Source: a virus. Taken from it: a stretch of 64,000 bases of DNA. Where the stretch lies: the IMG/VR virus record IMGVR_UViG_3300017960_000001, positions 1 through 64,000 of that record. One strand, given 5' to 3'. Each line of letters opens with the position of its first letter. Positions within the stretch are counted from its first letter, which is position 1. Under the pieces are notes generated by a model, which ran no database searches, had not been told where the DNA came from, and worked only from the letters and a program-made list of their open reading frames with translations. The translations under genes and the position numbers were made by a program. This document shows, one piece after another, positions 1,760-60,972 of this stretch.

Positions 1760-1862
1760 AGAAAACGACAAGCACCTGTCTTATTTTGTTGACACGACCA
1801 GGCCAGCGGGTTACATTATCCTCATGATGACGCACACAACAAACACCGCGGAGGACAAAATG
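1760..1862 (+). promoter_or_regulatory. Conserved promoter/leader module, copy 1
   Basis: GAAAACGACA..TGTCTTATTTTG, TTGACA 1789, 17 nt, TACATT 1812, ATGATGAC 1824, GGAGG, ATG 1860. Confidence 0.85.
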
Positions 1863-2330
1863 ACCGACACGAAAACCCTGCACACCGTAAAGGTTACCTT
1901 CTCCAAATTCAACACCGCCCGCCGGGTGACGTTGGTCGGCCGTGACTTCGGGACGCGGGACGGGCTGTATGGTCCCTATCGGACGATCTACATGGACGGC
2001 CCCCGCGGCGCCGAGTACGGGATGCACATCTATTCGAATAACAGCTGGCGCGTCTACTCCGTCAAGTCGATGTCGATGAACGACATTGCCGGCGGCCGCG
2101 ACGCCGACACCGAGGTCGAGGTCACCGCCCGCCCCGCCACCGCGGACGAGGTCGCCGATTGCGCCCGGCTCGGATACGAGCTGAACCCCGACACGGACAC
2201 CGACACGGACGCTGACGCGGACACCACCGCCGACGCGGCGACCGACACCGACACCGACACGGACACCGGCGCCGACACCGACGCGGCGATCGTGCTGACT
2301 TGCTGGGCCGACACCGGAATGGAGGCATAG
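1824..2330 (+). CDS. Hypothetical protein with Asp-Thr repeat tail (alternative start 1860)
   Basis: ORF follows the promoter module; SD GGAGG before 1860. Confidence 0.75.
   Translation: MMTHTTNTAEDKMTDTKTLHTVKVTFSKFNTARRVTLVGRDFGTRDGLYGPYRTIYMDGPRGAEYGMHIYSNNSWRVYSVKSMSMNDIAGGRDADTEVEVTARPATADEVADCARLGYELNPDTDTDTDADADTTADAATDTDTDTDTGADTDAAIVLTCWADTGMEA
2190..2283 (+). repeat. Degenerate GACAC(C/G) hexamer tandem repeat encoding (DT)n
   Basis: gacacggacaccgacacg...gacaccgacaccgacacggacacc. Confidence 0.8.
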
Positions 2331-2334
2331 AACC

Positions 2335-2577
2335 ATGACGACGATCAACGACAAGGAAATCTACGAGCTTCGATTGGCCGAGGTTGTGGGCGACCGGGAC
2401 ACGGTCGGCAACGAGTACGAGCGGGGACAGTTCAACCCGTTTTTGTACGCCTTCGCACGCGGGGTCCCGATGGTCGAGGGGCACGCGATCCGCGACCAGC
2501 TGGAAATGCACGGGCGGTACATGGACCTCGACTTGTTCCCGGGCGTGATCCTGCTCGCCCGGGGCGGGAGGGCGTAA
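2335..2577 (+). CDS. Hypothetical protein
   Basis: GGAGG upstream, tight operon packing. Confidence 0.7.
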   Translation: MTTINDKEIYELRLAEVVGDRDTVGNEYERGQFNPFLYAFARGVPMVEGHAIRDQLEMHGRYMDLDLFPGVILLARGGRA

Positions 2578-2579
2578 CG

Positions 2580-3113
2580 ATGCCACGGAAAACCAAGGCC
2601 GAACGGTTCGGCGATCTAGCCGGATGGAAGGACGCGCGCCGGAACAAGCTGACCGGCGGTTGGACGTCCGTATACGAGTCCGCAAAGCAAGGGTTCGACG
2701 GCGAGGACAAGTACACCGTCATCTGCGAGGCGCACGGCGCGATCGTGTCGGTGCCGAGGTACAAGGACGCGCTATACATCGCCGGCGACGCGACCGAGTT
2801 CTGCGACGATTGCCGAGCGTTGGAGCGGATCGGTGCCGGCAACATGCGCCAGCTCGAGCGGACCGACGACCACGCTGAGAACGCCTACCGATCCCGGGCC
2901 GAGTACCCTTGCGCGGTGTGCGGACGGAAGGTTAAGCACCCGGCCGGGATGCTCCACTTGATCGCCGGCGGCGACACGGTTCTGCACCCCGACGCCGAGG
3001 ATCTATACGAGCCCGACGGCGGCGACCTCGGCCTGTACCCGGTCGGGAAAGACTGCGCGCGGGCGTGGGCCGGGTGGCTCCACCCGGCGACCGACGCCGA
3101 CGGCGAGGGCTGA
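2580..3113 (+). CDS. Hypothetical Zn-binding protein
   Basis: CEAH, CDDC, CAVC and VGKDC motifs; SD present. Confidence 0.7.
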   Translation: MPRKTKAERFGDLAGWKDARRNKLTGGWTSVYESAKQGFDGEDKYTVICEAHGAIVSVPRYKDALYIAGDATEFCDDCRALERIGAGNMRQLERTDDHAENAYRSRAEYPCAVCGRKVKHPAGMLHLIAGGDTVLHPDAEDLYEPDGGDLGLYPVGKDCARAWAGWLHPATDADGEG

Positions 3114-3135
3114 AGCCCAACCTTCAAGCGGGCCA

Positions 3136-3247
3136 GAAAAAAAACGACAGCGGTGTGTCTTTTTTTGTTGACGCGACGGACGCAGCATGCCAGTATTTAC
3201 TCATGATGACGCACACCAAAAACACCAACGCCGGGGAGGACAACATG
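3136..3247 (+). promoter_or_regulatory. Conserved promoter/leader module, copy 2
   Basis: TTGACG 3168, 17 nt, CAGTAT 3191, ATGATGAC 3203, GGAGG, ATG 3245. Confidence 0.85.
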
Positions 3248-3619
3248 GATAACGCGCACACCTCGAACCTCATCGACATCACCGACATGACCGCGGCCGA
3301 GCTGGACGCGCTCCTCGACACCGCCGCCGGCGACGACACCGACGACGACGACACCGACACCGACGCCGACCGCCCCGCCGGATTGACCGACCGGGTGTGG
3401 GCGGCGATCGTCGCGTCCAAGGCCGACCCGACTCTCTGCATCGAGGTCGACCACTGGTCGCGCATCGAACGAACCCAGCTGGCTAGCTACTACGGTTGGA
3501 AGCTGACCGACCCCGTAACGACCGATTGGATTTGGGGGAGCGACCGGGACACCGACACCGGCCCCGACTACGAGAAGATGATCCTCGCCCGGCAAGACCG
3601 CGAGGATTGGGGCTACTAA
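3203..3619 (+). CDS. Acidic hypothetical protein (alternative start 3245)
   Basis: Follows module 2; DDTDDDDTDTDAD tract. Confidence 0.75.
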   Translation: MMTHTKNTNAGEDNMDNAHTSNLIDITDMTAAELDALLDTAAGDDTDDDDTDTDADRPAGLTDRVWAAIVASKADPTLCIEVDHWSRIERTQLASYYGWKLTDPVTTDWIWGSDRDTDTGPDYEKMILARQDREDWGY

Positions 3620-3632
3620 AATGGAGGGCACC

Positions 3633-3956
3633 ATGACCAACGACACCAACGCATTCGAGGCCGCGATGACGATCTGGCTCGGCATCGCTCAGGAAATCAT
3701 GGAGACGGCGCACAACCGCGCGGGGTTCAGGTTCCCGTGTCCGTCCCTCTCCACGATGTACGGGAGGCGGTACGTGCGGATCGTCCGCGAGGATTCCTCG
3801 GGGAGCAGGTCCGCTCACGCCTTTGTCGACCGCACCAACGGCGACGTGATGAAGGCCGCCAGCTGGAAGGGTCCGGCTAAGAACTTCGCCCGGGGCAATA
3901 TCTACGACGCCGCCCGCCCGGGTGTCACCGAGTACGGGGCGCACACATGCTACTAA
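3633..3956 (+). CDS. Conserved phage hypothetical protein
   Basis: SAHAFVD..NGDVMKAASWKGPAK resembles a widespread phage family of unknown function; GGAGG before ATG 3633. Confidence 0.75.
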   Translation: MTNDTNAFEAAMTIWLGIAQEIMETAHNRAGFRFPCPSLSTMYGRRYVRIVREDSSGSRSAHAFVDRTNGDVMKAASWKGPAKNFARGNIYDAARPGVTEYGAHTCY

Positions 3957-3970
3957 TGGAGGGGGACAGG

Positions 3971-4381
3971 ATGCGCGTTCGAATCAGGTACAAGGTCACC
4001 GACCACGGCGAGCTTCTCGCCAACGGGTGCGAGACGGGTGTCCGGGGGTGGGCCCGCCGGGACCTCCGCGGGACGTCCGGCAACGCCAGGGTTGACGCCG
4101 CGTCGGCGGTGTTCCGCCGCGACCTGCTCCGCAAGGACGCCAGCTGCTACCCGGCGATCAAGCTCCCGCGGGGTGTCAACCCCGGCGACACGTGGGAGCA
4201 CGTGGCCGACCTCGAGGTGTTCGGGTGCGGGACGTGCCCGGGGTTGGACGGGCGCCCGGTCTACTACGAGGACCCCATCGAGGACTTCGCCGACGACGAC
4301 CCGCCCGAGACTCTGATCTGCTATCCCACGTGGGAAACGTTCCCGGTCACTCTCTCCTCGGACGACCTGCTCGATCGCTGA
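3971..4381 (+). CDS. Hypothetical protein
   Basis: GGAGGGGG SD, operon packing. Confidence 0.65.
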   Translation: MRVRIRYKVTDHGELLANGCETGVRGWARRDLRGTSGNARVDAASAVFRRDLLRKDASCYPAIKLPRGVNPGDTWEHVADLEVFGCGTCPGLDGRPVYYEDPIEDFADDDPPETLICYPTWETFPVTLSSDDLLDR

Positions 4382-4402
4382 ACCCCGCGCCGAGTATGGC
4401 GC

Positions 4403-4511
4403 AAAAAAATCAGCATACCCGGTGCTTATTTTTGTTGACGCGGCGGGCGAGGCGTGTCAGTATTATCTCATGATGACGGGCACCAACAACAACGACACGG
4501 GGCACACAATG
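4403..4511 (+). promoter_or_regulatory. Conserved promoter/leader module, copy 3
   Basis: TTGACG 4435, 17 nt, CAGTAT 4458, ATGATGAC 4470, second ATG 4509. Confidence 0.85.
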
Positions 4512-4763
4512 ACCAAAACTCAACGCAACTCTCTGGCAAGCCTCCGCGCGGTTGGTTCCGCGGACATCGTCGGGCAGGGCGGGATCTACGTTTACGACCC
4601 GGACCCCCGCGGCGACGGACCGTGCACGCCGGCCGCTACCATCGGGCACAACGTCGCCCGCGCTCTCGTCGACGCCGGGGTGGCCCACGTCGAAAAGAAC
4701 GGCCGCACCATCGAGCTTTGGAAAGTGTGCGGGGGCGGCGCGAAGCTGGTTCCGAATAACTAG
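4470..4763 (+). CDS. Hypothetical protein (alternative start 4509)
   Basis: Follows module 3. Confidence 0.7.
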   Translation: MMTGTNNNDTGHTMTKTQRNSLASLRAVGSADIVGQGGIYVYDPDPRGDGPCTPAATIGHNVARALVDAGVAHVEKNGRTIELWKVCGGGAKLVPNN

Positions 4764-4776
4764 GAGGGCGTAACCA

Positions 4777-5358
4777 ATGCCGACCACACCGAAAAAATAC
4801 CGCATCGCCACCGACCGCGCGACGGGGATCCGATACTACGTCCATTCGCTAGAGTTCCCGCGCGACGGTTCGCCGGTTCGCGCGCATCTATTCGGCCGGA
4901 CGACCCGCGCCAACGAGAACGTCAAGACCGGCGGCGCCCGCTGCTGGCACACCGGGATCTTCACGGTCGACCGGGACACCGTCGACGTGTCCGACCCGAC
5001 CCCCCGCACGTTCGAGCTTGCGTTGGAAATCTACGCCGAACAGAACGCCGACCACCACCGCCGGCGAGGGTTCGTTTTCTACCGCAAATCCAAGGACGGC
5101 GCGCGTAATATCCGGTTCGGGATCCGCCCCATGACCGAGGACGAATTGATCGACGCGGCCGCCGGCGCCGAGGATGCCGGCGACGTCGAGCTTGCCATGG
5201 ACCTGCTCGACATCGCCGACCGCCGGGCCAACGACGACGACGACGACACCACGGCCGAGGATGACGGCACGTGGACCGCCGACGGCATCACCGCCGACGA
5301 CCGGCTGAACCGGTTGTTCGACGCGGTGGCCGGTGGCAATTACGGGAAGCTTTTCTAG
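4777..5358 (+). CDS. Hypothetical protein with acidic C-terminus
   Basis: AGGAGG SD; typical codon use. Confidence 0.7.
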   Translation: MPTTPKKYRIATDRATGIRYYVHSLEFPRDGSPVRAHLFGRTTRANENVKTGGARCWHTGIFTVDRDTVDVSDPTPRTFELALEIYAEQNADHHRRRGFVFYRKSKDGARNIRFGIRPMTEDELIDAAAGAEDAGDVELAMDLLDIADRRANDDDDDTTAEDDGTWTADGITADDRLNRLFDAVAGGNYGKLF

Positions 5359-5399
5359 GACGACGGACACCGCCGACGGACGGCGGGACGGAGGGCAGC

Positions 5400-5564
5400 A
5401 TGCACGACCACGCGACGACGACGATCGAAACCTTCACCCGCGACAATCAGCTGGTGATCCGCTACGACATGACCAACCCGACCGCCACCGAGCAAGCGCA
5501 CGCGATCCTGCTCGCGGCGACGACCTCCGGCGAGTTCGGCGGGGTCGTGCTCGAGGGGGTGTAG
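5400..5564 (+). CDS. Small hypothetical protein
   Basis: GGAGG before ATG 5400. Confidence 0.55.
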   Translation: MHDHATTTIETFTRDNQLVIRYDMTNPTATEQAHAILLAATTSGEFGGVVLEGV

Positions 5565-5566
5565 CG

Positions 5567-5785
5567 GTGGGCCGATCACCACGGGCCCGGGCCGAGCACC
5601 TCGGCGGTACGAGGATCCGGTACTACTTCCCCTGCGGTCACTACCAAACGATCGACCACGGCAAGGGGCCGGTGGCGAAGCGCATCGGAGAGGCCGGGTG
5701 TCGATTCATCGTCAAGACCTGGGAGCGCGGCGGGGTGACCGCCGACTGCCCGACGTGCGAACGGAAAAGGAAGGGGGCCGCGTGA
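5567..5785 (+). CDS. Small Zn-ribbon protein
   Basis: CGH...CPTC motifs; GTG start just after the upstream stop. Confidence 0.55.
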   Translation: MGRSPRARAEHLGGTRIRYYFPCGHYQTIDHGKGPVAKRIGEAGCRFIVKTWERGGVTADCPTCERKRKGAA

Positions 5786-6561
5786 ACGACTACGAACAAC
5801 GACGGCAGGACCGGATCGATCGGTTGCGGGATCGGGTGAAGCGCAAGCGGGCCGAGTCCGCGGCGCAGCTCGACCGGGCGGGCAAGCTCGGCGACGCGAT
5901 CCCGATGGGGCAACCGATCCTCGTCGGCCACCACTCTCAACGCCGGCACGAACGGGACCTCGACCGGATCCAGAACGCGACCCGCCGCGGGGTGGACGCC
6001 GCCCGCGAGGCTGACGACCTCGAACGCCGGGCTCAGGCTGCCGAGAATAGCACCGCGATCAGTAGCGACGACCCCAACGCCCTCGTCGAGTTGCGGGCGA
6101 AGGTGGCGCGCTTGGAGGCTCGACGCGAGGACATGAAACGGACCAACCGGGAGTGGAGGCGGGGCGGGTGGGATGCCGTGTCCGGGTTGGACGACGACCA
6201 GAAAACCAAGATCAAGGAAACCCTCGCCCGGGTCGGCCGCGGCGACGGGCCGCCGTTCGCACCCTACCAGCTGACGAACCTCGGCGGGCGCATCCGACAG
6301 GCGAAAGCTCGTATCGTCCAGATGGAGACGCAACGGGCGATCCCGAGTAGCGAGTCCGAGGTCGGCGACGTGCGGATCGTGGACAACGCCGACGCGAACC
6401 GGGTGCAGCTGTTCCTGCCGGGGCGCCCGGGCCCGGACCTGAAAACGAGACTGAAGCGGAGCGGGTGGCGGTGGTCGCCGTCGCGGGGTTGCTGGCAACG
6501 CCACCGATCCACGGCCGCGCTGAACCAAGCACAAGCCCTCGCTGGCGCCTATTCCGATTGA
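5782..6561 (+). CDS. DUF3560-like protein
   Basis: IPMGQPILVGHHS, AISSDDPNA and GWRWSPSRGCWQR motifs recognised from this family. Confidence 0.8.
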   Translation: MNDYEQRRQDRIDRLRDRVKRKRAESAAQLDRAGKLGDAIPMGQPILVGHHSQRRHERDLDRIQNATRRGVDAAREADDLERRAQAAENSTAISSDDPNALVELRAKVARLEARREDMKRTNREWRRGGWDAVSGLDDDQKTKIKETLARVGRGDGPPFAPYQLTNLGGRIRQAKARIVQMETQRAIPSSESEVGDVRIVDNADANRVQLFLPGRPGPDLKTRLKRSGWRWSPSRGCWQRHRSTAALNQAQALAGAYSD

Positions 6562-6595
6562 TGGGGATGGACACACCAACCGATAGGAGGACCGG

Positions 6596-7354
6596 ATGCA
6601 GCTGGAACTGGAACGGCCGCTCGTCGTTTTCGATTTGGAAACGACCGGCGCCGACGTGAACAACGACAAGATCGTGGAGCTTGCGGCGGTGAAGCTCTCG
6701 CCGGGAGGCGGGCGGGACCAGCTTGTGCAGCGGTTCAACCCGGGCCGACGGATCCCGCCGGACGTGGTAGCGATCCACGGCATCACCAACGCCGACGTGA
6801 AGGACTGCCCTCTCTTCAGGGAGGAGGCCGCCCGGGTGCACCGGTTCTTCAAGGGGGCCGACCTCGGCGGGTTCAACGCGGACCGGTTCGACATCCCGCT
6901 CCTACAGAACGAGCTATTGCGAGCGGGCCTGAGCCTCGACCTGACCGTCTGCATTGTCGACGCATGCCGGATATACCACCAACGCGAGCCCCGGGACCTC
7001 GCGGCCGCGGTGCGGTTCTACACGGGCGGCGAGCACGTCCACCACCACGCCGCCCTCGCTGACGTCGAGGCTACGTTGGATGTGTTGCGCGGCCAGCTCG
7101 AGCAATACGCCGACCTGCCCCGCTCGGTGCAGGGGATCCACGACGCGACCCGCGACCCGGACGCGGTCGACTTCGCGGGCAAGCTGCGATGGGAGGGGGA
7201 CGCGGTGGTGCTGACCTTCGGCAAGCACAAGGGGACCCCGTTGCAACGGGTCGATCAAGGCTATCTCATCTGGGCGAAGCGTAACGGGGTGTTCGGGCCG
7301 GACGTGGTGCCGGTGATCAATTCCGCGCTCGAAGGCAGATACCCGAAACGCTAG
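6596..7354 (+). CDS. DEDDh 3'-5' exonuclease (DNA Pol III epsilon / ExoX-like)
   Basis: FDLETTG, GFNADRFD, HAALADV motifs; C-terminal FGKHKG..YLIW domain. Confidence 0.9.
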   Translation: MQLELERPLVVFDLETTGADVNNDKIVELAAVKLSPGGGRDQLVQRFNPGRRIPPDVVAIHGITNADVKDCPLFREEAARVHRFFKGADLGGFNADRFDIPLLQNELLRAGLSLDLTVCIVDACRIYHQREPRDLAAAVRFYTGGEHVHHHAALADVEATLDVLRGQLEQYADLPRSVQGIHDATRDPDAVDFAGKLRWEGDAVVLTFGKHKGTPLQRVDQGYLIWAKRNGVFGPDVVPVINSALEGRYPKR

Positions 7355-7423
7355 CCCGCGGCGCCCGCCCTCTCAAGCTCTGATCCGGCCGCCGATCGCT
7401 GCGGCCCGCTCTCCATGCGACCA

Positions 7424-7500
7424 GAAAAAATCAGCAGGACGTGTGCTTATTTTTATTGACACGGTGGGCCCCACGTGCCAGAATTTACTCATGATGACAC
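7424..7500 (+). promoter_or_regulatory. Conserved promoter module, copy 4
   Basis: TTGACA 7456, 17 nt, CAGAAT 7479, ATGATGAC 7491; no second SD-ATG follows. Confidence 0.85.
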
Positions 7501-7513
7501 GGACACAACACAC

Positions 7514-7598
7514 GGCGACGCGCACCGAAAAGGGGACCGGCTGTCCCGCCCGCACGGGTGAGTGCTGCTTCGGCAAGGGTTCGACTCCCTCGTTCGCC
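7514..7598 (+). ncRNA. Candidate tRNA-like structured ncRNA
   Basis: Closing stem GGCGA-CG/CG-T-TCGCC, T-arm AGGG-TTCGACT-CCCT, cUUCGg hairpin and two further hairpins; no canonical D or anticodon arm, no CCA. Confidence 0.55.
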
Positions 7599-7732
7599 TC
7601 TCAGTTTGTTTCGCGGTTGGTGTTGGCGGTGGCAATCACGGCCGGGGGCAATGCGGCTCTCGACCGGACGGCCGACTACCACGCCCGAACCCAGACCACG
7701 ACCCGCGACCACGTCGCGGGCGGGAGGTAGCC

Positions 7733-8170
7733 ATGCACCGGAACGGCGACGAAGTGATCATCCGAACCAAGAACCACGCCCGCGGGATCGTGGTCGACGC
7801 CAACCCCGCGATCGACCGCTACACGGTCCGCCCCTACGGTGACGGGTTGGTGTTGGTAGCCGGCCACGAGTTGGACCCGGTCGACGACGACGGTTGCCCG
7901 TGCTGCGGCGCCCCGCCGACCAAGTGGGATCCCGACGTCGACACGATGGGGACGATCGTCTATTGTTCCAAGTGCGGGGCGATGTTCACGGCCCCTGGCG
8001 AGACGATCTACCGCGGCGATTCCTACAACTACGTTTCCCCCATGATGTCGAGACGGACGGACATGGACGGGGCGAAGTATTTCGATCTGATGGTGCTGGG
8101 CTCGAACGGGGTTGAGCGGCGTCACGGGTGGTTCGACCCGGACACCAAGCTGATCCTGCAAATCGGTTAG
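7733..8170 (+). CDS. Hypothetical protein with Zn ribbon
   Basis: CPCCG...CSKCG; GGAGG SD. Confidence 0.7.
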   Translation: MHRNGDEVIIRTKNHARGIVVDANPAIDRYTVRPYGDGLVLVAGHELDPVDDDGCPCCGAPPTKWDPDVDTMGTIVYCSKCGAMFTAPGETIYRGDSYNYVSPMMSRRTDMDGAKYFDLMVLGSNGVERRHGWFDPDTKLILQIG

Positions 8171-8185
8171 AAAACGGAGGGCACG

Positions 8186-8515
8186 ATGGTAGTCTACACG
8201 GACAAGAATATCCACGACGACCCCTGCGGCGGCCGCCTCTGCGACGAATGTGAGATCGCGGGTTGCCCCGGCAACGGCGGCGACGACGCGCCCCCGGTCG
8301 ACCCGGCCCGCTCGAGGGACAACGCCCGGACGGCCGCGCGGGAGTTCGGGCGCAAGCTCGGCCTCCGCGTCACGCCCGACGACGTGTCCAAGTTCGGCGG
8401 GTGGTGGGTCTACCGCCGGGTTCAGGACGGACGGCACTTCGAGTGGTGCGCCCCCTACGGGGCGGTCAGGTTGATCAACGGCACCGGCTACCCGGACGAG
8501 GTGGGAAGCTGCTAA
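8186..8515 (+). CDS. Hypothetical protein
   Basis: GGAGG SD; Cys cluster. Confidence 0.65.
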   Translation: MVVYTDKNIHDDPCGGRLCDECEIAGCPGNGGDDAPPVDPARSRDNARTAAREFGRKLGLRVTPDDVSKFGGWWVYRRVQDGRHFEWCAPYGAVRLINGTGYPDEVGSC

Positions 8516-8534
8516 CGGCGCCAGCTGGCGCAAC

Positions 8535-9062: not shown

Positions 9063-9103
9063 CTCGCGCCGTCCTCTCTCCCCCGCGCCAAGCCCGGCCT
9101 AAA

Positions 9104-9206
9104 GAAAAAACGACAGCCACTCGCTTATTTTTGTTGACACGACCGGCGAGGCATGCAATACTGAGGCATGATGAACGGACACAACAACACAACGGAGGAC
9201 ACAATG
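9104..9206 (+). promoter_or_regulatory. Conserved promoter/leader module, copy 5
   Basis: TTGACA 9134, 17 nt, AATACT 9157, ATGATGAAC 9168, GGAGG, ATG 9204. Confidence 0.8.
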
Positions 9207-9911: not shown

Positions 9912-9970
9912 CCCGACGCCGGCGCCCGCCGGCACCGCCCCCCCCCCGACACCGACTAACCGCACAACGT

Positions 9971-9999
9971 TTGACGCGACCGCCCGCCGGCGGTAGGAT
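9971..9999 (+). promoter_or_regulatory. Sigma70-like promoter lacking the conserved module flanks
   Basis: TTGACG, 17 nt, TAGGAT upstream of SD-ATG 10034. Confidence 0.6.
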
Positions 10000-10033
10000 G
10001 GACCAAGAAGCTGACCCCAACGTGGAGGGAACC

Positions 10034-11626: not shown

Positions 11627-11635
11627 GAGGACACC

Positions 11636-45165: not shown

Positions 45166-46544
45166 TGGGTAGCGGCCCCGTCATCTGGCTGTCGTTGATC
45201 CAATCCGACGAGGGCGGGGACGAAACGCTCGAGCTGGTACAGGACCGGCTCGAATCCTTCACCTTCATCGACCGCGACCGGGGCAAGGATGTGTGCGAGC
45301 TTCGGTTCCGCGATCGGGACATGGCGCTGCTCGACAACCCCGCTTTCCGCAAGGGACAGAAGCTCGCGGTGACGTGGGGTTGGCCGGACAACATCGCCAC
45401 CCCGCGACGGATGATCGTGAAGCGCACAAAGGAAGTGAACCTCGTCAAGCTGCTCGACGAGTCCGTGCTGCTCGACCGCTCTCGGAAGTCCCGGGTGTGG
45501 CACGATGTCTACGACTCTGATGTGGTCTACCAGATTGCCGAGGAGAACGGCTACGAGGGGATTCTGGCGGACGTACTCCAAACGTTTGTCATCCGTCACG
45601 CGATCACGCAGGAGGGCACAGACGCCGCCCTGCTCAACCAGCTGGCGCGTCGCAACGGGTTCGTCTGGTACATCGACGCAGCCGGGCTCCATTTCCACCC
45701 TCGGCGGTGGGGCGTCGAACCGACTCACTTCTTCACCTACGTGAACGCGCCCGGGCTCGGCGACGTGCTCTCGCCGCCGGTGATTCAGGGGAATGTGCAG
45801 GACGTCTCGAAGATCCGGGTGGTCGCGCGGGACCCGATCACCAAGGAAACCGTCGAGGCCGAGGTCGGCGCCACCACCGACGACGAAACCCTCGGCGACT
45901 ACCTCGAACACTACTACTCGCTCGGCGACGACGAGGAGATCGGCGACCCCGACAACCCGGACGGGCGACGGCAAGCGAGGGCGTCGTCGAAGGAAACGAT
46001 CAACATCGGCCTCGCCACGCAGGAGGAGGTGTCGAACGAGGCCGCGGCCCGGTATTTCGAGACGGCTCAGGGACGGTACAAAATGGAGGTGACGCTGCGC
46101 GGTAACCCGCAGGTCGGGGCGAAGCAGCTGCACTATTTCAAGCTTCCGTCCGAGGCTTTCACCGGGCTATACTACTGCACCGAGGCGCGCACCGAAATCA
46201 CTCCCGGTAGCTACAAAATCATGGGGAAATACAGGAAGGACGCGCTCGGAAAGTTGGCGGCGAAGAAGGTCCTCTCGGTCGGCCGGAAGAAGAACAAGAA
46301 ACCGGCCGACGTTCCGCTCGACGAGAACGGTCAACCGGCGGACACGTCGTCCCTCGAAAAGATGCTGACGTGGGGAGAGGAGAACGGGCAACCTGTGCCG
46401 AAGTGGCAATACAAAGACAAGTCGGGGACGTCGGTCGGTAGCAGTACAGCGGTCACCGCGGCCGAATGGTCGGCGCTACCGGCGAACCAACGCGACGACC
46501 TGATCAGCAAGTCCGCGGGCGGGCTCGTCCTGCCGGGAGAATAG
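45165..46544 (+). CDS. Baseplate hub (P2 gpD / late control D-like)
   Basis: VTWGW, SDVVYQIAEENG, TDAALLNQLARRNGF..LHF, LRGNP. Confidence 0.85.
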   Translation: MGSGPVIWLSLIQSDEGGDETLELVQDRLESFTFIDRDRGKDVCELRFRDRDMALLDNPAFRKGQKLAVTWGWPDNIATPRRMIVKRTKEVNLVKLLDESVLLDRSRKSRVWHDVYDSDVVYQIAEENGYEGILADVLQTFVIRHAITQEGTDAALLNQLARRNGFVWYIDAAGLHFHPRRWGVEPTHFFTYVNAPGLGDVLSPPVIQGNVQDVSKIRVVARDPITKETVEAEVGATTDDETLGDYLEHYYSLGDDEEIGDPDNPDGRRQARASSKETINIGLATQEEVSNEAAARYFETAQGRYKMEVTLRGNPQVGAKQLHYFKLPSEAFTGLYYCTEARTEITPGSYKIMGKYRKDALGKLAAKKVLSVGRKKNKKPADVPLDENGQPADTSSLEKMLTWGEENGQPVPKWQYKDKSGTSVGSSTAVTAAEWSALPANQRDDLISKSAGGLVLPGE

Positions 46545-53177: not shown

Positions 53178-53180
53178 CTC

Positions 53181-53885: not shown

Positions 53886-53887
53886 CG

Positions 53888-54358: not shown

Positions 54359-54361
54359 ACC

Positions 54362-56650
54362 ATGGGAATCACGACCGGACAGCTGCTCGCAATGCTCTCC
54401 TCGGAGGAGGCGAGCGTCGCAACGATCGTCGGGGACTTCGCGCTCGTCATGCGGGCCCCGTTGCCCGACGAAGTGCAGGTCCCGCTCGGGTCGACGGTGG
54501 CGCTCAGGGTGGTCGCGCTCGAGGGGGATCCGGTCGTCGCCGGCGAGGGGGTTTCCGAACTGGAAATCCGGGTCGACGGGACTCTCGTTTTCGACCTCAC
54601 CGGAGGGTTGTTCGTCGACGTGGATTGGCAGGGGGCCGGGAACGCTCAGGCTCCGCACACCGCAACCGATCCGTACACCTTTCATGAGGTGACGCTGGAC
54701 CCGACGTCGCCGCCTCAATGGACCACCGAGCAGGTCGTGACCGTCGAGGTGTCCGGCGAGGATCACCTGTCGAACACGTTCTCGGAGAGCTACAGTTTCA
54801 CCGCGCTGGACGTCACACCGCCGCAGGTTGTGTCGGCCGAGGCGATCGATCGACAGCAGGTCCGGGTCACGTTCTCGGAAGCAATGGCGACGACCCCGCA
54901 GAACGGCGCCGCGGAGGTGACGTCGACGAACGCCGGCCCGTTCAACCTCTCTGGCGGTGAGACTCTCATCGTGGCGATCGGGGGCGAGCAGCAAACGCTA
55001 ACCTTCGATGCGCCGATGTTCCTCGCTCCGGGGGCGGCGACCGACGCCGAGGTCGCGTTCGCTATCTCAGCCTTGCTGGACGGCGCCGCTGGCTCAGAGG
55101 CCGCGGGCGGGGGTGTCACCATCGCCACCGACGACCGCGGCGACTCAGTCTCGCTTCAGGTCCTCGGAGGGACGGCGAATGCAGTGCTCGGGTTTCCGGT
55201 CGCGGCGGCCTACGGATCCTCGGCCTACGTGCTCGCGGCCGAGAACTTCACGTTCACCCGGCACAACGTCTTTCCAGAGGTGGCGGTCAGCCTGACGGCC
55301 GAATCGGTGCAGCTGGTCGACGGGTCCGGCGATACTCAGGTGGACGTCTCGACGCAGTGGGCCATGACCCCGGGCGCACCCTACCGCGTGACGGTCGACG
55401 ACGACGTCGAGGACGCGCATTCTGTGCCGATCGACCCCGACTACCTATCGGCCGAGTTCGACGGTTGGAGCCCGCCGTGGCCGGCGAGGCGGGACGCGAG
55501 CCTCGAGGTCCCGGCTGACCTGTACGAAAAGGACGCCACCGGGCACGCGACCGCGATCATCAATTGCTTCCAAGAGGTCGAGGACCTGATCCTCTACGAC
55601 ATCGACACGCTGATCGATCCGATCGACCCGGACCTTGCGTCGGACGCGGAGATCGACCTGCACCTGACCGAGTTGGGGAACCCGTTCGATTGGGCCGACC
55701 TCGACCTGACCGCGGCGCAACGACGCAAGCTCGCCGAGTTGTTGCCGACCCTGTACCAGTACCGCGGGACGGCGCAGGGGATAGAGGCTGCGATCCGGTT
55801 GCTACTGGAAATCGAGGTCGAGGTGGTGCCGCATTGGGCCGAGGTCTGGGTGCTCGGCGAGGACCTCCTCGGAGATTACTACCCGGCGCAAGTATTGTCG
55901 GCCAACCCGCAGACCTACAATCTTTCGGCGGCGTCGCTCGACCTTTGGATTGCGGTGGACGGGGGGCACACGATCCAGGGAGTCGACACCGGCGCGCCGA
56001 GCTTCACGGTCCCGGGGCCGGTGGCCTCCCTGTTCACCGCCGGCACGATCTTCCGGGTGGTCGACTCTACTGGCAACGACGCGACCTATGAGGTCGACGC
56101 GGCCGGCTCGACCGACACCGGCGACGAGACGATCATCCCGCTGACCACCACCCCGCCGAGCGCGCTGGCGGACGGGCGCATCGTCGACCGGATCGAGTTC
56201 TCGAACGTGGCGGGGATCGACTTCGCCACCCCGACCGCGGCGACGGCCGACGAGGTCGCCACGGCGATCGCGGCCCGCACGGAAGCAGGCGCAGCTGCGC
56301 TCGATCCCGGGGGCGGTACGGTGGTCGCTGTGATCTCGACCAACCCGACGGGAACGATCCAAGTAGTAGGGGGCACCGCCAACGCGGTGCTCGGTTTCGA
56401 TACGAGTCTGCACAGTTCGACGGGCGGTTGTGTCCTCGGTCCGACAGACTCTCGCGGGATTCGAACCTTTGACATCGTGACGAACGAAACGCTATCGTCT
56501 TTGGAGGAGTCGTTGATCGAACGGATCGCGGTTCGCTTCAAGATGGTCAACGAACACTTCGGCAGGATCCGCACCGGCTACGTGGTTTCCGACGACGGAA
56601 TCTGGCGGCTCGGATCAAGCCGGCTAGGGGACGACACGGTCCTCGGCTGA
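54362..56650 (+). CDS. Tail protein with P2 gpI-like domain and Ig-like inserts
   Basis: IDPDLA..L..LG..RRKL..LYQYRGTAQGIEAAIRLLL. Confidence 0.75.
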   Translation: MGITTGQLLAMLSSEEASVATIVGDFALVMRAPLPDEVQVPLGSTVALRVVALEGDPVVAGEGVSELEIRVDGTLVFDLTGGLFVDVDWQGAGNAQAPHTATDPYTFHEVTLDPTSPPQWTTEQVVTVEVSGEDHLSNTFSESYSFTALDVTPPQVVSAEAIDRQQVRVTFSEAMATTPQNGAAEVTSTNAGPFNLSGGETLIVAIGGEQQTLTFDAPMFLAPGAATDAEVAFAISALLDGAAGSEAAGGGVTIATDDRGDSVSLQVLGGTANAVLGFPVAAAYGSSAYVLAAENFTFTRHNVFPEVAVSLTAESVQLVDGSGDTQVDVSTQWAMTPGAPYRVTVDDDVEDAHSVPIDPDYLSAEFDGWSPPWPARRDASLEVPADLYEKDATGHATAIINCFQEVEDLILYDIDTLIDPIDPDLASDAEIDLHLTELGNPFDWADLDLTAAQRRKLAELLPTLYQYRGTAQGIEAAIRLLLEIEVEVVPHWAEVWVLGEDLLGDYYPAQVLSANPQTYNLSAASLDLWIAVDGGHTIQGVDTGAPSFTVPGPVASLFTAGTIFRVVDSTGNDATYEVDAAGSTDTGDETIIPLTTTPPSALADGRIVDRIEFSNVAGIDFATPTAATADEVATAIAARTEAGAAALDPGGGTVVAVISTNPTGTIQVVGGTANAVLGFDTSLHSSTGGCVLGPTDSRGIRTFDIVTNETLSSLEESLIERIAVRFKMVNEHFGRIRTGYVVSDDGIWRLGSSRLGDDTVLG

Positions 56651-56663
56651 GGGAGAGCACGGC

Positions 56664-59099
56664 ATGGACAAACGAGATTTCTATTACCTCGAGCGGGTTT
56701 TGGAGAGCGACTTGGATCAGGTCCAAGCGTTCGTCGAGACTGCGATCAAGGCGTCGCGCTCGGACCTCGGCGAGTTCGGGATCCACGACGGCGGCGACGT
56801 GGTGCAGAACGCCCCGCCGGATCTCAATGTGTTGGTCGGCGGACCGGCGCAGCTGTCCGACGCCGAGGGCAACCGGATCGCGTGGTCGACTCAGCAAACC
56901 GTCGACTGCTCGCAGGACTACCTCGGGTCGCCGACGACGGTCACCAACCCCGCCAACGAGAGATGGATCGCGGTGGTCGCCGAGTACGATCAGACGTTGT
57001 CCGATCCCGAGACGGACGGCAACGGAGTGATCGTCTATACGAGGGTTTACGATAGCTTCAATATCTACGTGGTGATGGCAACCGAGCAAGCTCTGGGCAC
57101 GGGGCTGAAGGCGTCGGTCCCGTCCGACGCGGTGCTGCTCGCCGACATCCTTTTGGTGAATGCCCAGACTCAGATCCTCAACGCCGACATCGACGAGGAC
57201 CGCCGCGAGGACTACACCCGGGAGACGGGCACCACGATCGCGGACCTCGTCGCCGGCACCCCGGCGGCCGCTATCACATGGCTCTACGGAGTGCTCGACG
57301 GCGTCGCGTCCGCGTCGGGGATCGTGTTCACCCCATCCGGCACCTGGCACGACGGCTCCGCTCTGGTGGCGACCAACGTCGAGGACGCGATCAACGAGGT
57401 GGTGGCCGACCTCGCCAGCGACACCGCGGCCGACGCCGGCGCTGACCGCGTCGGCGCCGAGGCACACACCACCGCCGGGGGCTACGCCGACCTCGCGCAG
57501 GGATCGGTCGAGGACCAGCTGCAATCGGTGGCCGACGACGTCGACGGACACATCGGAGGCGGGGCACCCCAGCACGCCGCGTCGGTGATCACGTTCTCGC
57601 CGGTGGGGATCATCGCGGCGACCGACGTTCAGGCTGCGATCGCCGAGTTGCTGACCGACCTCGCGGCGCAATCGGCGCCGACCGGAGCAGCTCAGGTCGG
57701 GTACCTCTCGCCGTGGGCCGTCGGGATGACGGTCAACTCCGCGCTGAACCTCAGGCCGGAACGTGACAAGCGCGAAGCACTGACCGGCGATTGGATCTCA
57801 CACGCCGACCACCCGCTCGACAAGACCCGCCTCGGCGGTACCGTCCCGCCGGGGCTCGGACTCTCCGAGGAGCTACCGCGTCAAGGGTTCTGGAATGAGA
57901 ACTGGTCCAATCCTTTCTCGGGTCGGAACAGCTACCAGCTGACCGCCTTCAATCACCCGGACGTGTGCATGCTCTGGCACTCGGAGGAAGGGCTGACCGG
58001 TTCCGGCTCGACGGTGCTCCGGCCGTTCATCGCTGTACTACAGCAGATCGACGGCGGCGGCGCCGGCAACTATCCGCACATCCTGATCTTCGATCCCGAG
58101 GACATCGCCGGCGGAACGATCGCCGACTTCACTCTGTCCGGTTTCACCGGGCACACCACCGGCCCGCTCTACGGTGAGGCGATGTGCTCGAACGGCGGCG
58201 AGCTTCTCGTCTGCATCAACGACGGCGCGGCGGACTTCGTCGGCAAGTTCACGATCGCCTCCGGCGTGGGCACACACGGCTGGGTGTTCAACTTCGGAGC
58301 GAACGTGTACGGGGCCTATCCGTCCAACCGGATCAGGATCGTGAACGACAACGGCGACATGGTGATCGCGCTCGGAGGAGTCGCCACCGGTGGCGCGGGC
58401 GTGCTCCAATGCCTCGACAAAAACGGGGCGTCGAACTGGCGAGCGGACGGTGACGCCGGCGCGGCGCAGGGCAACCCGTCCGGCGGGCTCTGTTCCGACG
58501 GGACGAACGTCTATTTCACCACCGACGCCACCGGCACCGCGACGCAATACTCGCTCTGCTCGGCGACCATCGCCGCGGGTGCCGACCCGGGGATCGTCCT
58601 GCCGCAGAACATGGCGAACAGTCGAACCCTCCTCGATTGCTGTTTTGATGGTCGGTTCGTGTGGTTCGTCACCGGCGCCGACACGATTGGACCGGGGGCG
58701 GCCTACATCGGCTGGTATGACCCGACCACCGACGCGGTGCAGCTGCCGGCGCACACGATCGGAGCGGCCGGCGCCGCGGCGATCGATCAACGTCATTCGG
58801 GGATGTGCTGCACCGACGGGCTGAACCTTTGGTTCCACGACTTCAACGAGCTTGCCGCAGTGGCGAACGCGATCTCGCGGTTGTCGGCGGTGCCGCTCGG
58901 CAATATCTACGACCGGCTGCAACCGGGCGACGACCCCGGCGGTTCGTGCCAGTACCTGAAGCTCCCGGGCAACGGGATCGGAGCGAAGGCGAGGCTCGGC
59001 CGGTTGGCCTTCGACGGCGACGCGATGTATGCGATCGTCGACAACGGAACGAACACGAACATCTTGCAGAGAGTACCGCGGGCCGGCTCGCGGAATTAG
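56664..59099 (+). CDS. Tail fibre protein
   Basis: N-terminal DFYYLERVLESDLD baseplate-docking pattern; ATNVEDAINEV/ATDVQAAIAEL repeats; propeller-like C-terminus. Confidence 0.75.
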   Translation: MDKRDFYYLERVLESDLDQVQAFVETAIKASRSDLGEFGIHDGGDVVQNAPPDLNVLVGGPAQLSDAEGNRIAWSTQQTVDCSQDYLGSPTTVTNPANERWIAVVAEYDQTLSDPETDGNGVIVYTRVYDSFNIYVVMATEQALGTGLKASVPSDAVLLADILLVNAQTQILNADIDEDRREDYTRETGTTIADLVAGTPAAAITWLYGVLDGVASASGIVFTPSGTWHDGSALVATNVEDAINEVVADLASDTAADAGADRVGAEAHTTAGGYADLAQGSVEDQLQSVADDVDGHIGGGAPQHAASVITFSPVGIIAATDVQAAIAELLTDLAAQSAPTGAAQVGYLSPWAVGMTVNSALNLRPERDKREALTGDWISHADHPLDKTRLGGTVPPGLGLSEELPRQGFWNENWSNPFSGRNSYQLTAFNHPDVCMLWHSEEGLTGSGSTVLRPFIAVLQQIDGGGAGNYPHILIFDPEDIAGGTIADFTLSGFTGHTTGPLYGEAMCSNGGELLVCINDGAADFVGKFTIASGVGTHGWVFNFGANVYGAYPSNRIRIVNDNGDMVIALGGVATGGAGVLQCLDKNGASNWRADGDAGAAQGNPSGGLCSDGTNVYFTTDATGTATQYSLCSATIAAGADPGIVLPQNMANSRTLLDCCFDGRFVWFVTGADTIGPGAAYIGWYDPTTDAVQLPAHTIGAAGAAAIDQRHSGMCCTDGLNLWFHDFNELAAVANAISRLSAVPLGNIYDRLQPGDDPGGSCQYLKLPGNGIGAKARLGRLAFDGDAMYAIVDNGTNTNILQRVPRAGSRN

Positions 59100-59114
59100 C
59101 GGAGGAACGGCGAC

Positions 59115-59660
59115 GTGACAGGGGGAGCGGAGGACGGATTGAACGGTGACGCCAAAGCTGTAATTGACCACGTCGACACCTTGTTCGAGGGGTTCGACAA
59201 GCGCATGCTCGAACTGCAAAAGCTCACCGGCGAGGGGGCCACGGCGATCGCAGGGATCTCAAGGGATGTCAAGAACCAAGGACGAGAGATCGGCGAATTG
59301 AAAACGGCGACGAACGACCTCCGGCGCAAGACCGAGGCGTTCCCGGGGATGATCGCTCAGGCGATCCGCGAGCACAAGCACGATTGCCCGGTGGTGGTCG
59401 CGCCGACGGTGGCGCCTCGCGGCGACGAACCGAGCCAGGTTGTCCCGGTTCCAGTTGGACCGGTCCGGCCGGACGTGGTGCCGACGGCAAGCTCGTCGTT
59501 CTTGCCATCGTCGACCGCGGTGAGGTATGTGATCCTCGTCGGGCTGTTCGTCGGGACCATGATCGCCGGCATCGTGATCGGCTCGGTAGTAAAAGCGAAC
59601 GCCCCTGAGTTGGGGCCAACACCGCCGGCCGCAGGAACGGCCGCGCGAGCAGAGGAGTAA
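59115..59660 (+). CDS. Coiled-coil membrane protein (holin-like candidate)
   Basis: GGAGG SD; one C-terminal TM segment YVILVGLFVGTMIAGIVIG. Confidence 0.5.
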   Translation: MTGGAEDGLNGDAKAVIDHVDTLFEGFDKRMLELQKLTGEGATAIAGISRDVKNQGREIGELKTATNDLRRKTEAFPGMIAQAIREHKHDCPVVVAPTVAPRGDEPSQVVPVPVGPVRPDVVPTASSSFLPSSTAVRYVILVGLFVGTMIAGIVIGSVVKANAPELGPTPPAAGTAARAEE

Positions 59661-59665
59661 GGGAT

Positions 59666-60055
59666 ATGACGATCGAGAATTTGACCAACGAGCAGGCCGC
59701 CGGCACTGGCTTCTCGGAAGCACACGGCGCGATCGAGGGCGGGCACCTCGCCAAAATCAACGAGATCATCGACACGATCAACGGGTTGGACACCCCGAGC
59801 GAGTTCCCGTACACCCCGACCACCGAGGCCGATTGGCCCGACCCCGACCCGACCACGTTGCAGGAGGGGCTCGACCAGCTGGCCGCTCGCCTCGAGACGA
59901 CCACGACCGCGCTCGAAGCGATCGACACCGCGGCCGAGTATCCGTTCGTCGAGGGGACCCCGGGAGATTGGGCGGTGCCGAACACCAACTTGCAGCAAGC
60001 GATCGACCGGATCGCGGCGCAAGTGGCGATCCTGCTCGGCGTTCCGATTCCGTAG
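59666..60055 (+). CDS. Short fibre-like protein with duplicated motif
   Basis: ADW..PTTLQEGLDQLA and GDW..TNLQQAIDRIA. Confidence 0.65.
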   Translation: MTIENLTNEQAAGTGFSEAHGAIEGGHLAKINEIIDTINGLDTPSEFPYTPTTEADWPDPDPTTLQEGLDQLAARLETTTTALEAIDTAAEYPFVEGTPGDWAVPNTNLQQAIDRIAAQVAILLGVPIP

Positions 60056-60235
60056 GACTCTCCGCGGGCCCGGCGACCGGGTCCACTTCTCCACCCCCGC
60101 ACGGCAACGCCACGGGGACGCACACCGGCTCGGTAGGGTCGACCCGCGTCCTTGCCCCCGTCACAGAGAACGGCCCTCAGATTGGCGTACAGGCTGCCTC
60201 AGAGCGAGGTGGCCGGCACCCCGCCACACGCCCAG

Positions 60236-60336
60236 GAAAAACGACAGGCACCTGCTTATTTTTGTTGACACGGCCGGCGGACCGCGTTACATTCCTACAC
60301 ATGATGACGCACACACAAACCCCGGAGGATGCCATG
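60236..60336 (+). promoter_or_regulatory. Conserved promoter/leader module, copy 6
   Basis: TTGACA 60265, 17 nt, TACATT 60288, ATGATGAC 60301, GGAGG, ATG 60334. Confidence 0.85.
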
Positions 60337-60534
60337 GCCGACGACATCAATCACGTTGAGCTGGAAATGAAAGCCCGCAACTGCACCGACGCCGAACTGA
60401 TATTCATGCGGGACGACGCCGGCGCCGCGTGGCGCGCGATGCCGGACAATCCCAAGGCCAAATTCTACCGGTGGGAAATGTGCTACGCCTGCAACGAAAT
60501 CGCCCGCCGCGGGTTGTCCGCGGACGGTTGCTAG
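60301..60534 (+). CDS. Small hypothetical protein (alternative start 60334)
   Basis: Follows module 6. Confidence 0.7.
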   Translation: MMTHTQTPEDAMADDINHVELEMKARNCTDAELIFMRDDAGAAWRAMPDNPKAKFYRWEMCYACNEIARRGLSADGC

Positions 60535-60546
60535 AAAGGGGGCGCC

Positions 60547-60852
60547 ATGCGCGCACCGATCGATTCCGTCGCCCGTTTCTGTAACGCCCTGCTGGACCGC
60601 GTCGTTTCCGCGGTCCTAATCGCCGGGCCCGACACCCGGATCGGCCGGGCGCGCGTCGCGCTCGGCAACGACCAGCTGGCAGCGATCACGTCGGACGTGA
60701 TGCGCCCGCTGCTCAAGGACGCGCTCCACGGCGACCGCTACGCCGAGGACCGGGCCGCCGTGGTCGACGGGATCTACGGGGCCGAGGCTGCGTTCGCCGC
60801 GGCGATCATCGCCGACGCGGTCAAGGGGATCGGCGACCGCTGCCCCGCGTAG
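60547..60852 (+). CDS. Hypothetical protein
   Basis: AAGGGGG SD. Confidence 0.65.
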   Translation: MRAPIDSVARFCNALLDRVVSAVLIAGPDTRIGRARVALGNDQLAAITSDVMRPLLKDALHGDRYAEDRAAVVDGIYGAEAAFAAAIIADAVKGIGDRCPA

Positions 60853-60865
60853 AGCCTACCCTTCA

Positions 60866-60972
60866 GAAAAAACGACAGGCACCGTATTCTTTTTGTTGAC
60901 ACGGCGGGCGGGGCGTGCAATGATGTTCTCATGATGACGGACACACAAACCAACGCAACGGAGGAAAAAATG
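60866..60972 (+). promoter_or_regulatory. Conserved promoter/leader module, copy 7
   Basis: TTGACA 60896, 17 nt, AATGAT 60919, ATGATGAC 60931, GGAGG, ATG 60970. Confidence 0.85.

Follow-up and report, generated by a model that had tools for sequence, protein, structure and literature searches.

The first 64 kb (hereafter, the window) of a 94,119-bp viral record from IMG/VR (IMGVR_UViG_3300017960_000001, here called G000) harbor repeated copies of a promoter–leader cassette, in which the motif ATGATGA, situated at the predicted transcription start site (TSS), is followed by a second ATG furnished with a Shine–Dalgarno (SD) sequence. The distance d, counted in nucleotides from the first ATG (ATG1, predicted +1) to the SD-led ATG (ATG2), tends to be a multiple of three (“in frame”) in this genome as well as in dozens of other uncultured phages, known from genomes and metagenomes; this tendency greatly exceeds chance expectation and is confined to leaders with ATG at the position +1. 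Probably, both AUGs are used for initiation and their common frame is kept by selection; a dual-entry cassette is the best explanation of the sequence data.

Leaderless initiation is usually demonstrated gene by gene, by TSS mapping and ribosome profiling in culturable hosts. Here, the comparative signal alone, i.e., the conservation of frame only in the presence of ATG at +1 together with the out-of-frame cases resolved by a stop–start overlap, provides population-scale indirect evidence for translation from 5′-terminal AUGs in uncultured phage–host systems. It suggests that phages have packaged leaderless and SD-led initiation in one reusable promoter–leader module.

The cassette and its two predicted start codons

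A search of the whole genome revealed 12 cassettes in G000, all on the + strand. Eight of them reside in the window (ATG1 at 1824, 3203, 4470, 7491, 9168, 60301, 60931, and 62806) and the others past it (65393, 76773, 86286, and 88232). Within the window, ATGATGAC occurs 8 times vs. 1.06 expected, 7/8 occurrences being situated behind a common promoter, and ATGATGAA at 9168 also sits behind that promoter. The eight copies counted in the preliminary description, which was made from the letters of the window, were found again and extended to 12; copy 4, skipped in that description, leads into a tRNA-like RNA.

The order of the elements is the same in 12/12 copies: TTGAC(A/G), a 17-bp spacer, a −10 hexamer (nAnnAT/TAnnnT), a discriminator, and ATGATGA. 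As read from the sequences, TG precedes the −10 (extended −10) in 10/12 copies, so the cassette promoter is of the sigma-70 type with a TG-extended −10. The discriminator ends in C and is usually 6 nt long, with one copy at 5 nt and one at 7 nt, while the distance from the end of the −10 hexamer to the A of ATG1 is 7 nt in 10/12 copies and 6 or 8 nt in two. A consensus promoter scan located the end of the −10 at a distance of 7 nt from the ATG for copies 1 and 4 and of 6 nt for copy 5; over 12 kb, 7 promoter-like sites were recorded vs. 1.0 expected in shuffles. Since the −10 ends 7 nt before the ATG, the predicted +1 falls on the A of ATG1, in line with the promoter geometry.

ATGATGA is invariant in 12/12 cassettes of G000 and in 8/8 cassettes of its relative G001 (see below), both genomes having been scanned for ATGATG only. 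At the other end of the leader, GGAGG or a weaker G-run stands at a fixed distance of 5 nt before ATG2. The arrangement GGAGG (or GGGG/GGGAG), 5 nt, ATG was not imposed by the search and is present in 9/12 G000 and 6/8 G001 cassettes (15/20).

The distances reported in the preliminary description for six copies (36, 42, 39, 36, 33, and 39) were reproduced together with the leader peptides, as was the 38-nt leader of copy 8, closed by TAA; the probability of 15/2187 calculated there for 6 or more of 7 copies being in frame is arithmetically correct. Three additional SD-led copies past the window (d = 36, 42, and 36) are all in frame. For the whole genome, 9/10 SD-led cassettes are in frame and open, with d of 33–42 nt (P = 3.6e-4). 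The same description stressed the absence of stops. The leaders are indeed open, but all 12 are devoid of T, which precludes a stop codon whatever the frame, and its absence therefore carries no information; the informative signal is the leader length modulo 3.

As far as composition is concerned, the leaders contain ACA motifs and few G outside the SD, with A+C amounting to at least 68% in each (about 83% for the pool). For the first 45 nt of the predicted cassette transcripts, the minimum free energy averages −3.3 kcal/mol vs. −13.0 ± 4.4 for random 45-nt windows of G000, and just 1% of the background windows are as open. By these computed energies, the transcripts possess the accessible, unstructured start region expected of a leaderless gene. 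In 9/12 cassettes of G000, the open reading frame (ORF) begun by ATG1 continues uninterrupted into the gene, and no SD precedes ATG1. Two start codons in one frame, each with what appears to be its own initiation signal, are found in 9/10 SD-led cassettes of G000 and in 6/6 of G001.

The frame relation in relatives and metagenomes

The closest comparison is offered by G001 (IMGVR_UViG_3300029258_001506), whose terminase is 49% identical to that of G000. Its 8 cassettes feature a different −10 and discriminator (TGTCACACTGTAACC) and an identical ATGATGA. The SD-led ones are in frame in 6/6 cases (d = 33, 36, 42, 36, 33, and 42), one cassette leads into the same tRNA-like RNA as copy 4 of G000, and the cassette at 45469 has lost the SD and ATG2 (GAGTAC...ATC) and is still open from ATG1 into a 127-aa protein. 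One first gene is clearly orthologous in the two genomes, i.e., that of G000 cassette 6 (66 aa, 73% amino acid identity): its leaders, of 33 nt in G000 and 36 nt in G001, encode unrelated peptides, and the similarity begins right after ATG2. Among the orthologous gene pairs, the leader length differs by 3 nt (33 vs. 36; 48 vs. 51).

Further genomes show the same trend. In contig L140 (terminase 35% identical), one cassette is in frame at 36 nt, and in the second one ATGATG opens straight onto a 45-aa membrane-like peptide. Among the genomes not pre-selected for the SD, in-frame cassettes account for 9/10 in G000, 6/6 in G001, 1/1 in L140, 3/3 in G006, and 2/2 in G009, i.e., 21/22 when pooled (P = 1.4e-9). 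The relatives retrieved via the terminase included four complete genomes of 94–102 kb; the cassette is lacking in relatives G002–G005, whose terminases are 43–47% identical. A locus search with the 66-aa first-gene protein (as a single sequence and then as a two-sequence alignment) recovered G001 as the sole relative, and a loose IMG/VR search with the pattern TTGTTGAC...CATGATGAC gave nothing beyond single chance matches.

Wider scans relied on a pattern in which the promoter, CATGATGA, and GGAGG-N5-ATG were fixed and the spacer was free at 13–31 nt, which corresponds to d of 30–48 and to a null expectation of 7/19 (0.37). In IMG/VR, this pattern retrieved 10 distinct cassettes outside G001, from contigs of 32–58% GC; d was a multiple of three in 8/10 of them, and a TAnnnT-like −10 box was situated 5–7 nt before the ATG in 10/10, even though the pattern did not specify a −10. 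Other cassettes on the same contigs were also in frame (39 and 51 nt). In a scan for leader length, d = 21 was found in 2 matches (both in frame) vs. 12 with d of 30–48; this gives only weak support to a minimal leader length of about 30 nt, set by the space that two ribosomes would need.

A metagenome collection, scanned with a version of the pattern that also required the −10, returned 71 distinct cassettes, which were clustered by the leader and the gene start. Of these cassettes, 51 were in frame (P = 2e-9), including 46 open fusions and 5 with a stop inside the leader; at the level of clusters, the figure was 37/55 (P = 4.5e-6). The T-free leaders were in frame in 14/14 cases and the T-poor ones in 35/37. 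In the 20 out-of-frame cases, 6 leader ORFs end on ATG2 as ATGA, 3 end before ATG2, 6 stop at most 10 codons past ATG2, and 5 run long, two of the latter representing one 308-aa ORF present also in two contigs of bacterial metagenome-assembled genomes (MAGs). In one leader family, a 46-nt variant of a 48-nt leader carries an in-frame TAG before the SD.

A comparison was also made with leaders lacking the first start codon. In the control scan of IMG/VR, the promoter geometry and the length range were the same and ACA replaced ATGATGA at +1; 23/85 distinct sites (27%) were in frame, including 9/38 among the T-poor leaders. The difference from the ATGATGA set is significant both overall (Fisher, p = 2.8e-8) and for the T-poor leaders (p = 1.2e-10). 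A G001-like, CA-rich family starting with ACA (..GAGGGACAAACCAAC..GGAGG; loci L367, L403, L408, L418, L420, L428, and L443 of IMG/VR), with the same promoter geometry and no ATG at +1, displays d of 34, 31, 35, 35, 35, 32, and 34, i.e., 0/7 in frame. The frame statistics on more copies from relatives, suggested as a check in the preliminary description, thus reveal a strong bias and not random frames. A scan of genome contigs without the −10 constraint yielded mostly chance matches in coding DNA (27/55 in frame including duplicates) and does not represent a clean null.

Certain cassettes dispense with ATG2 altogether. Four cassettes in relatives have the 5′ ATG as the sole start, preceding an HNH endonuclease, proteins of 159 and 127 aa, and a 45-aa membrane-like peptide. 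Contig L281 (Ga0272442_10008319) combines one normal dual cassette with two leaderless-only cases. In one of them (L281:10649-11008:-), ATGATG begins the ORF of a 120-aa HNH endonuclease (Pfam HNH_5, E = 5e-11), and the stretch up to the domain lacks any further ATG, GTG, or TTG in frame; in the other (L281:6344-6820:-), the ATGATGA promoter directly abuts a 159-aa gene, DUF488-like, in which an SD-led second start is absent.

Proposed dual initiation and its alternatives

The core of the preliminary proposal, i.e., initiation at two starts of one transcript, is retained and gains support from the preservation of frame in many independent cassettes and its absence without ATG at +1, from the 5′-ATG-only genes behind the same promoter, and from the out-of-frame cases closed at or before ATG2. 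Overall, the sequence comparisons support translation of the 5′-terminal AUG (leaderless initiation) as well as of the SD-led AUG. At the same time, the accompanying suggestion of a shared Thr/Asn-rich N-terminal tag is disfavored: only the composition is conserved, following the CA-rich, T-free RNA, the peptides being Thr/Asn/His-rich here and Ile/Glu/Lys/Asn-rich in lower-GC relatives, and the orthologs carry unrelated leader peptides.

In the proposed mechanism, host RNA polymerase would begin the transcript on the A of AUGAUGA, and the 5′-terminal AUG would serve for leaderless, 70S-type initiation. It would be followed by a spacer of 20–35 nt, free of T, rich in A and C, and nearly devoid of structure, which is reminiscent of known CA/ACA translation enhancers and carries GGAGG, 5 nt, and the second AUG, open to 30S subunits. 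With the two AUGs in frame, ribosomes from the first one would make the same protein with a harmless hydrophilic extension of 10–16 residues, and no initiating ribosome would be wasted; otherwise, selection would favor a stop that ends the leader ORF on the second AUG or shortly ahead of it, an arrangement of stop–start coupling. Presumably, selection keeps both AUGs in one frame because ribosomes really start at the first. The likely benefit would be fast, context-independent expression of any gene placed behind the cassette via two routes of ribosome entry: ribosomes translating the leader would keep the ribosome-binding site unfolded in a genome of 66% GC, and the SD-led start would still work on read-through transcripts, where the first AUG is internal.

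Other readings of the frame relation have to be weighed against this mechanism. The leader might be untranslated, with the multiples of three originating from slippage of AAC/ACA triplets or from copying of the whole module including ATG2. Triplet runs do occur in the leaders (e.g., AACAACAAC), the sole out-of-frame copy of the window features an (AC)n dinucleotide run, and the cassettes are clearly paralogous modules. However, the CA-rich, T-poor ACA-start leaders of the same length are devoid of the bias (9/38 and 0/7), so neither slippage nor module copying explains the signal; this largely refutes the idea, and the leader lengths of 30–51 nt (plus 78 nt) over more than 50 distinct clusters, along with the 3-nt difference between orthologs, leave it scarcely credible. 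It is also very improbable that the TSS is off the ATG, with ATGATGA being internal or untranscribed and the frame relation reflecting, e.g., an SD-independent internal upstream ORF. The +1 is a predicted one, TSS choice can vary by 1–2 nt, and the discriminator ranges from 5 to 7 nt across the copies; still, the spacing from −10 to ATG is the canonical 6 nt (+1 being the 7th position, a purine) in 10/12 copies and in all independently found cassettes, there is neither room nor signal for an SD upstream of ATG1, and the doubled ATG would tolerate a TSS shift of 1–3 nt in the same frame.

The opposite extreme, in which ATG1 is the sole real start, the extension is the N-terminus of the protein, and the ATG of GGAGG-N5-ATG codes for an internal Met next to an SD-like sequence (e.g., a pause site), is in keeping with the leaderless-only genes behind the same promoter and with the G001 cassette at 45469, which keeps the frame open though its SD and ATG2 have decayed. 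This is countered by the unimposed G-run at a fixed 5 nt before the ATG and by the onset of ortholog similarity and Pfam domains right after ATG2. For instance, the first gene of cassette 86286 (G000 86328-86798 = L189:2328-2798), the sole cassette first gene with a clear family, encodes an AAA_33/zeta-toxin-like P-loop kinase (Pfam, E = 3e-14 and 4e-11), and position 1 of the AAA_33 profile aligns to residue 5 of the protein counted from ATG2. Moreover, copy 8 and the ATGA overlaps make sense only with ATG2 as the start; ATG2 is probably a real start, and a purely leaderless gene appears improbable. Finally, the SD-led ATG alone might matter, ATGATGA being retained for a reason related to the promoter, the initial transcript, or an operator bound by a protein or RNA that turns early mRNAs off. 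If the host translates any 5′ AUG, the frame would be kept, or the upstream ORF closed, just to avoid harm. Such a constraint would account for the invariance of ATGATGA including the second ATG and A, unneeded for leaderless initiation, for its retention before an RNA element and a structured leader, and for the lack of conservation of the leader peptides; likewise, an inverted leader copy in the hairpin loop of cassette 76773 could pair with the shared 5′ ends. Yet the 5′-ATG-only genes, such as that of the HNH endonuclease, imply that the ATG is productive at least there, the cassettes could have shed a merely harmful ATG (leaders of a related kind begin with ACA instead), and translation from the first AUG is needed in this case as well, the difference from the dual-entry cassette being just in which route matters. 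We consider this reading unlikely.

Several points weigh against the dual-entry cassette. The invariant second ATG and the A after it are not accounted for by leaderless initiation alone; tolerance to TSS wobble or a preference for A at +4 of each AUG are possible reasons. ATGATGA is kept also before the tRNA-like RNA (copy 4) and before the long structured leader of cassette 76773, so part of its conservation may reflect a requirement of the promoter, the initial transcript, or a regulator site and not a start codon. About a quarter of the metagenomic cassettes are out of frame. Within the leaders, which are T-poor, a comparison of stop-codon depletion in the ATG1 frame and in the other frames gave no discrimination, and in one lineage the leader motif ATTGAG puts TGA in one frame, confounding the stop counts by frame. 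The reading is built on the cassette architecture, the conservation of frame restricted to ATG at +1, the scarcity of predicted structure, and the leaderless-only genes behind the same promoter type; it goes beyond them in the TSS position, the use of both AUGs, and the benefit (robust, context-insulated expression), all of which we infer.

Each ingredient of the proposed mechanism has a precedent. In mycobacteria, a 5′ ATG or GTG is necessary and sufficient for leaderless initiation (PMC4633059), and about a quarter of the transcripts are leaderless, small ORFs and upstream starts in frame being among the cases known (PMC4633059, PMC9031893). Such initiation is governed by the accessibility of the start codon (PMC8459731). 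CA repeats raise the translation of leaderless and leadered mRNAs (Martin-Farmer and Janssen 1999, as cited in PMC9031893), ACA motifs act as translation enhancers (PMC3879156), and translated leader peptides insulate downstream start sites (PMC6302717; bioRxiv 10.1101/2023.02.09.527918). The tract between the 5′ AUG and the SD resembles these enhancers in being A/C-rich, ACA-containing, and unstructured, a likeness of composition; in contrast to them, it is also coding, with its length held to multiples of three. With leaderless mRNAs, e.g., lambda cI transcribed from PRM, the cassettes share the start at the predicted +1, the lack of an upstream SD, the unstructured 5′ end, and the CA-rich sequence downstream of the AUG. 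They differ in that the AUG is doubled (AUGAUGA) and placed in a reused promoter module, with an SD and an in-frame AUG 33–51 nt further on, so that one transcript would serve both modes.

Another parallel is found in the bicistronic-design (BCD) insulators and translational coupling (PMC6302717; bioRxiv 10.1101/2023.02.09.527918; PMC12548453), where a short translated leader contains the downstream SD. In copy 8 and in the 6 ATGA metagenomic cassettes the leader ORF likewise ends at the gene start, and the ribosome helicase likely opens the start site irrespective of the gene placed behind it. Unlike in BCD, the leader ORF would be started leaderlessly and not by a first SD, and it is mostly fused in frame and not terminated. 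In every cassette the SD is contained in the leader ORF, whereas a stop at or over the downstream start is restricted to copy 8 and 6/71 metagenomic cassettes, the ORF being fused in 9/10 cassettes of G000. Judging by the sequences, the cassette would act like a BCD in part, yet it is not a BCD.

In lambda S105/S107 (holin/antiholin) and IF2 alpha/beta, both starts are SD-dependent and yield functionally distinct isoforms of one specific protein. These dual-start motifs (reviewed in PMC13515050) also combine two in-frame starts on one mRNA with a long and a short form of the product. By contrast, the extension provided by the cassette is generic, non-conserved, and of low complexity, it occurs on many unrelated genes, and the isoforms are probably equivalent. 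Thus, there are precedents for leaderless mRNAs, for alternative starts in one frame, for CA enhancers, and for coupled leader ORFs; the literature searched did not yield them combined in a reused promoter module of (early) phage genes with an invariant doubled 5′ AUG, and to that extent the arrangement is new.

A bolder version of the dual-entry reading can be put forward only tentatively and is, to our mind, rather doubtful. Accordingly worded, it holds that the cassette, combining AUGAUGA (70S) with an in-frame SD-led AUG (30S) via a translated, CA-rich spacer free of structure, might be a widespread, natural, and portable translation insulator of uncultured phages, which would keep early genes translated if one of the routes is blocked by host physiology or by defenses and toxins acting against SD initiation, the shared 5′ end offering a global handle for shut-off. 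Should the dual-entry cassette as such be confirmed, the module would be a natural counterpart of synthetic bicistronic insulators and a compact part, driven by the host RNA polymerase, for context-independent expression in high-GC bacteria. It would also provide a rule by which start codons annotated in phages could be corrected and a direct test of whether two initiation routes buffer the early expression of phages against the host state or translation-targeting defenses.

Genomic setting of the cassettes and associated RNA elements

The G000 genome is characterized by 66% GC, 15% T, and direct terminal repeats, and all its identified genes, those of the cassettes included, are on the + strand. 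The terminase, portal, head, and tape-measure genes span 13.7–59 kb, and cassettes are situated on either side of this structural module. Nearly all first genes of the cassettes are small ORFans; together with the flanking position of the cassettes, this fits early genes, so the cassette regions are presumably the small-gene, early regions of the phage. Searches against cultured phages gave zero DNA matches (megablast and blastn with the window and with one cassette) and, for the terminase and portal (tblastn), a best identity of at most 31%, hence neither a cultured relative nor a pointer to the host; the receiver-domain protein of G000 gave no pointer to the host either. Host assignment from MAG labels (Nitrospirales, Lentisphaeria, Nitrospira) was rejected, the labels being too weak. 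An archaeal (haloviral) reading was prompted by the apparent origin of many relatives in one sediment sample series, which we take to be hypersaline lake sediment; it was also rejected, the T-rich element being at about −44 to −36 and not at the TATA position, the −35/−10 geometry being bacterial, and the SDs being strong.

The cassettes of the window vary in the details of their elements. Cassette 1 (1789–1862, +) comprises the −35 TTGACA at 1789, the −10 TACATT at 1812–1817, ATGATGA at 1824, GGAGG, and the ATG at 1860 (d = 36, in frame), from which a 156-aa ORFan starts on the + strand; its leader is T-free, CA-rich, and open. Cassette 2 (3168–3247, +) has TTGACG, a TG-extended −10 CAGTAT, ATGATGA at 3203, and the ATG at 3245 (d = 42, in frame), which begins an acidic 124-aa ORFan on the same strand. 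In cassette 3 (4435–4511, +), ATGATGA at 4470 is followed by the weaker SD GGGG and the ATG at 4509 (d = 39, in frame) of an 84-aa ORFan. Cassette 5 (9134–9206, +) is distinguished by the −10 AATACT and the 5-nt discriminator; after ATGATGA at 9168 come GGAGG and the ATG at 9204 (d = 36, in frame) of a 235-aa gene.

Downstream of the structural module, cassette 6 (60265–60336, +) has the −10 TACATT, the 7-nt discriminator, ATGATGA at 60301, GGAGG, and the ATG at 60334 (d = 33, in frame) of a 66-aa gene, and cassette 7 (60896–60972, +) has ATGATGA at 60931, GGAGG, and the ATG at 60970 (d = 39, in frame) of a 172-aa ORFan. Cassette 8 (62771–62846, +) contains ATGATGA at 62806, the (AC)n run, GGAGG, TAA at 62839–62841, and the ATG at 62844 (d = 38). 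Its leader ORF is 11 aa long, and the TAA occupies the place of the ATG of the other copies, 2 nt before the real ATG. The latter (62844–62942) opens just a 32-aa, very basic ORF (MALKKNDRSRKTRKSHHKKLRRR...), a candidate microprotein, and the next gene begins at 62953.

Two cassettes of G000 are followed by RNA elements. Cassette 4 (7456–7598, +) consists of the promoter and ATGATGA at 7491, without an SD-led ATG, and its first-gene slot is taken by a tRNA-like RNA of about 85 nt (7514–7598), the G001 counterpart of which is located at L161 ~1556-1640. This RNA comprises an acceptor-like stem, a T-arm GGGTTCGACTCCC, and two more hairpins. Its DNA is about 85% identical between G000 and G001, the terminases of which are 49% identical, and compensatory changes are present at three base pairs; it was not recognized by ARAGORN and Rfam.

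In cassette 76773, a 19-codon ORF is followed by a 145-nt structured leader. Here, a long hairpin (G000 76790-76915 = L188:12790-12915) is predicted, with −67 kcal/mol and z = −3.9, the loop of which exposes an inverted cassette leader (the reverse complement of ATGATGACGGACAC...ACGGAGGG) matching the 5′ ends of the 60931 and 62806 transcripts in 14/14 positions. Through this loop, the transcript might base-pair with the SDs and the common 5′ ends of other early mRNAs. G001 does not possess this inverted-leader hairpin. A leader of another kind, 78 nt long and in frame (MMIEQQSQRSASPT...), is common to three contigs, L284 (+750), L317 (-7743), and L328 (+6182), where it precedes three unrelated genes; it contains a GC-rich dyad, in contrast to the structure-free leaders of the window.

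Upstream of each −35, an A-run, a dyad of 4–5 bp, and a T-run are situated (1760–1788, 3140–3167, and 60235–60264 in the window, with equivalents elsewhere). This element is missing at 76773 and represented by a variant at 62806 and 88232, and in G001 phased A/T tracts are found in its place. The stems look too weak for intrinsic terminators, and a UP element or an operator is more likely.

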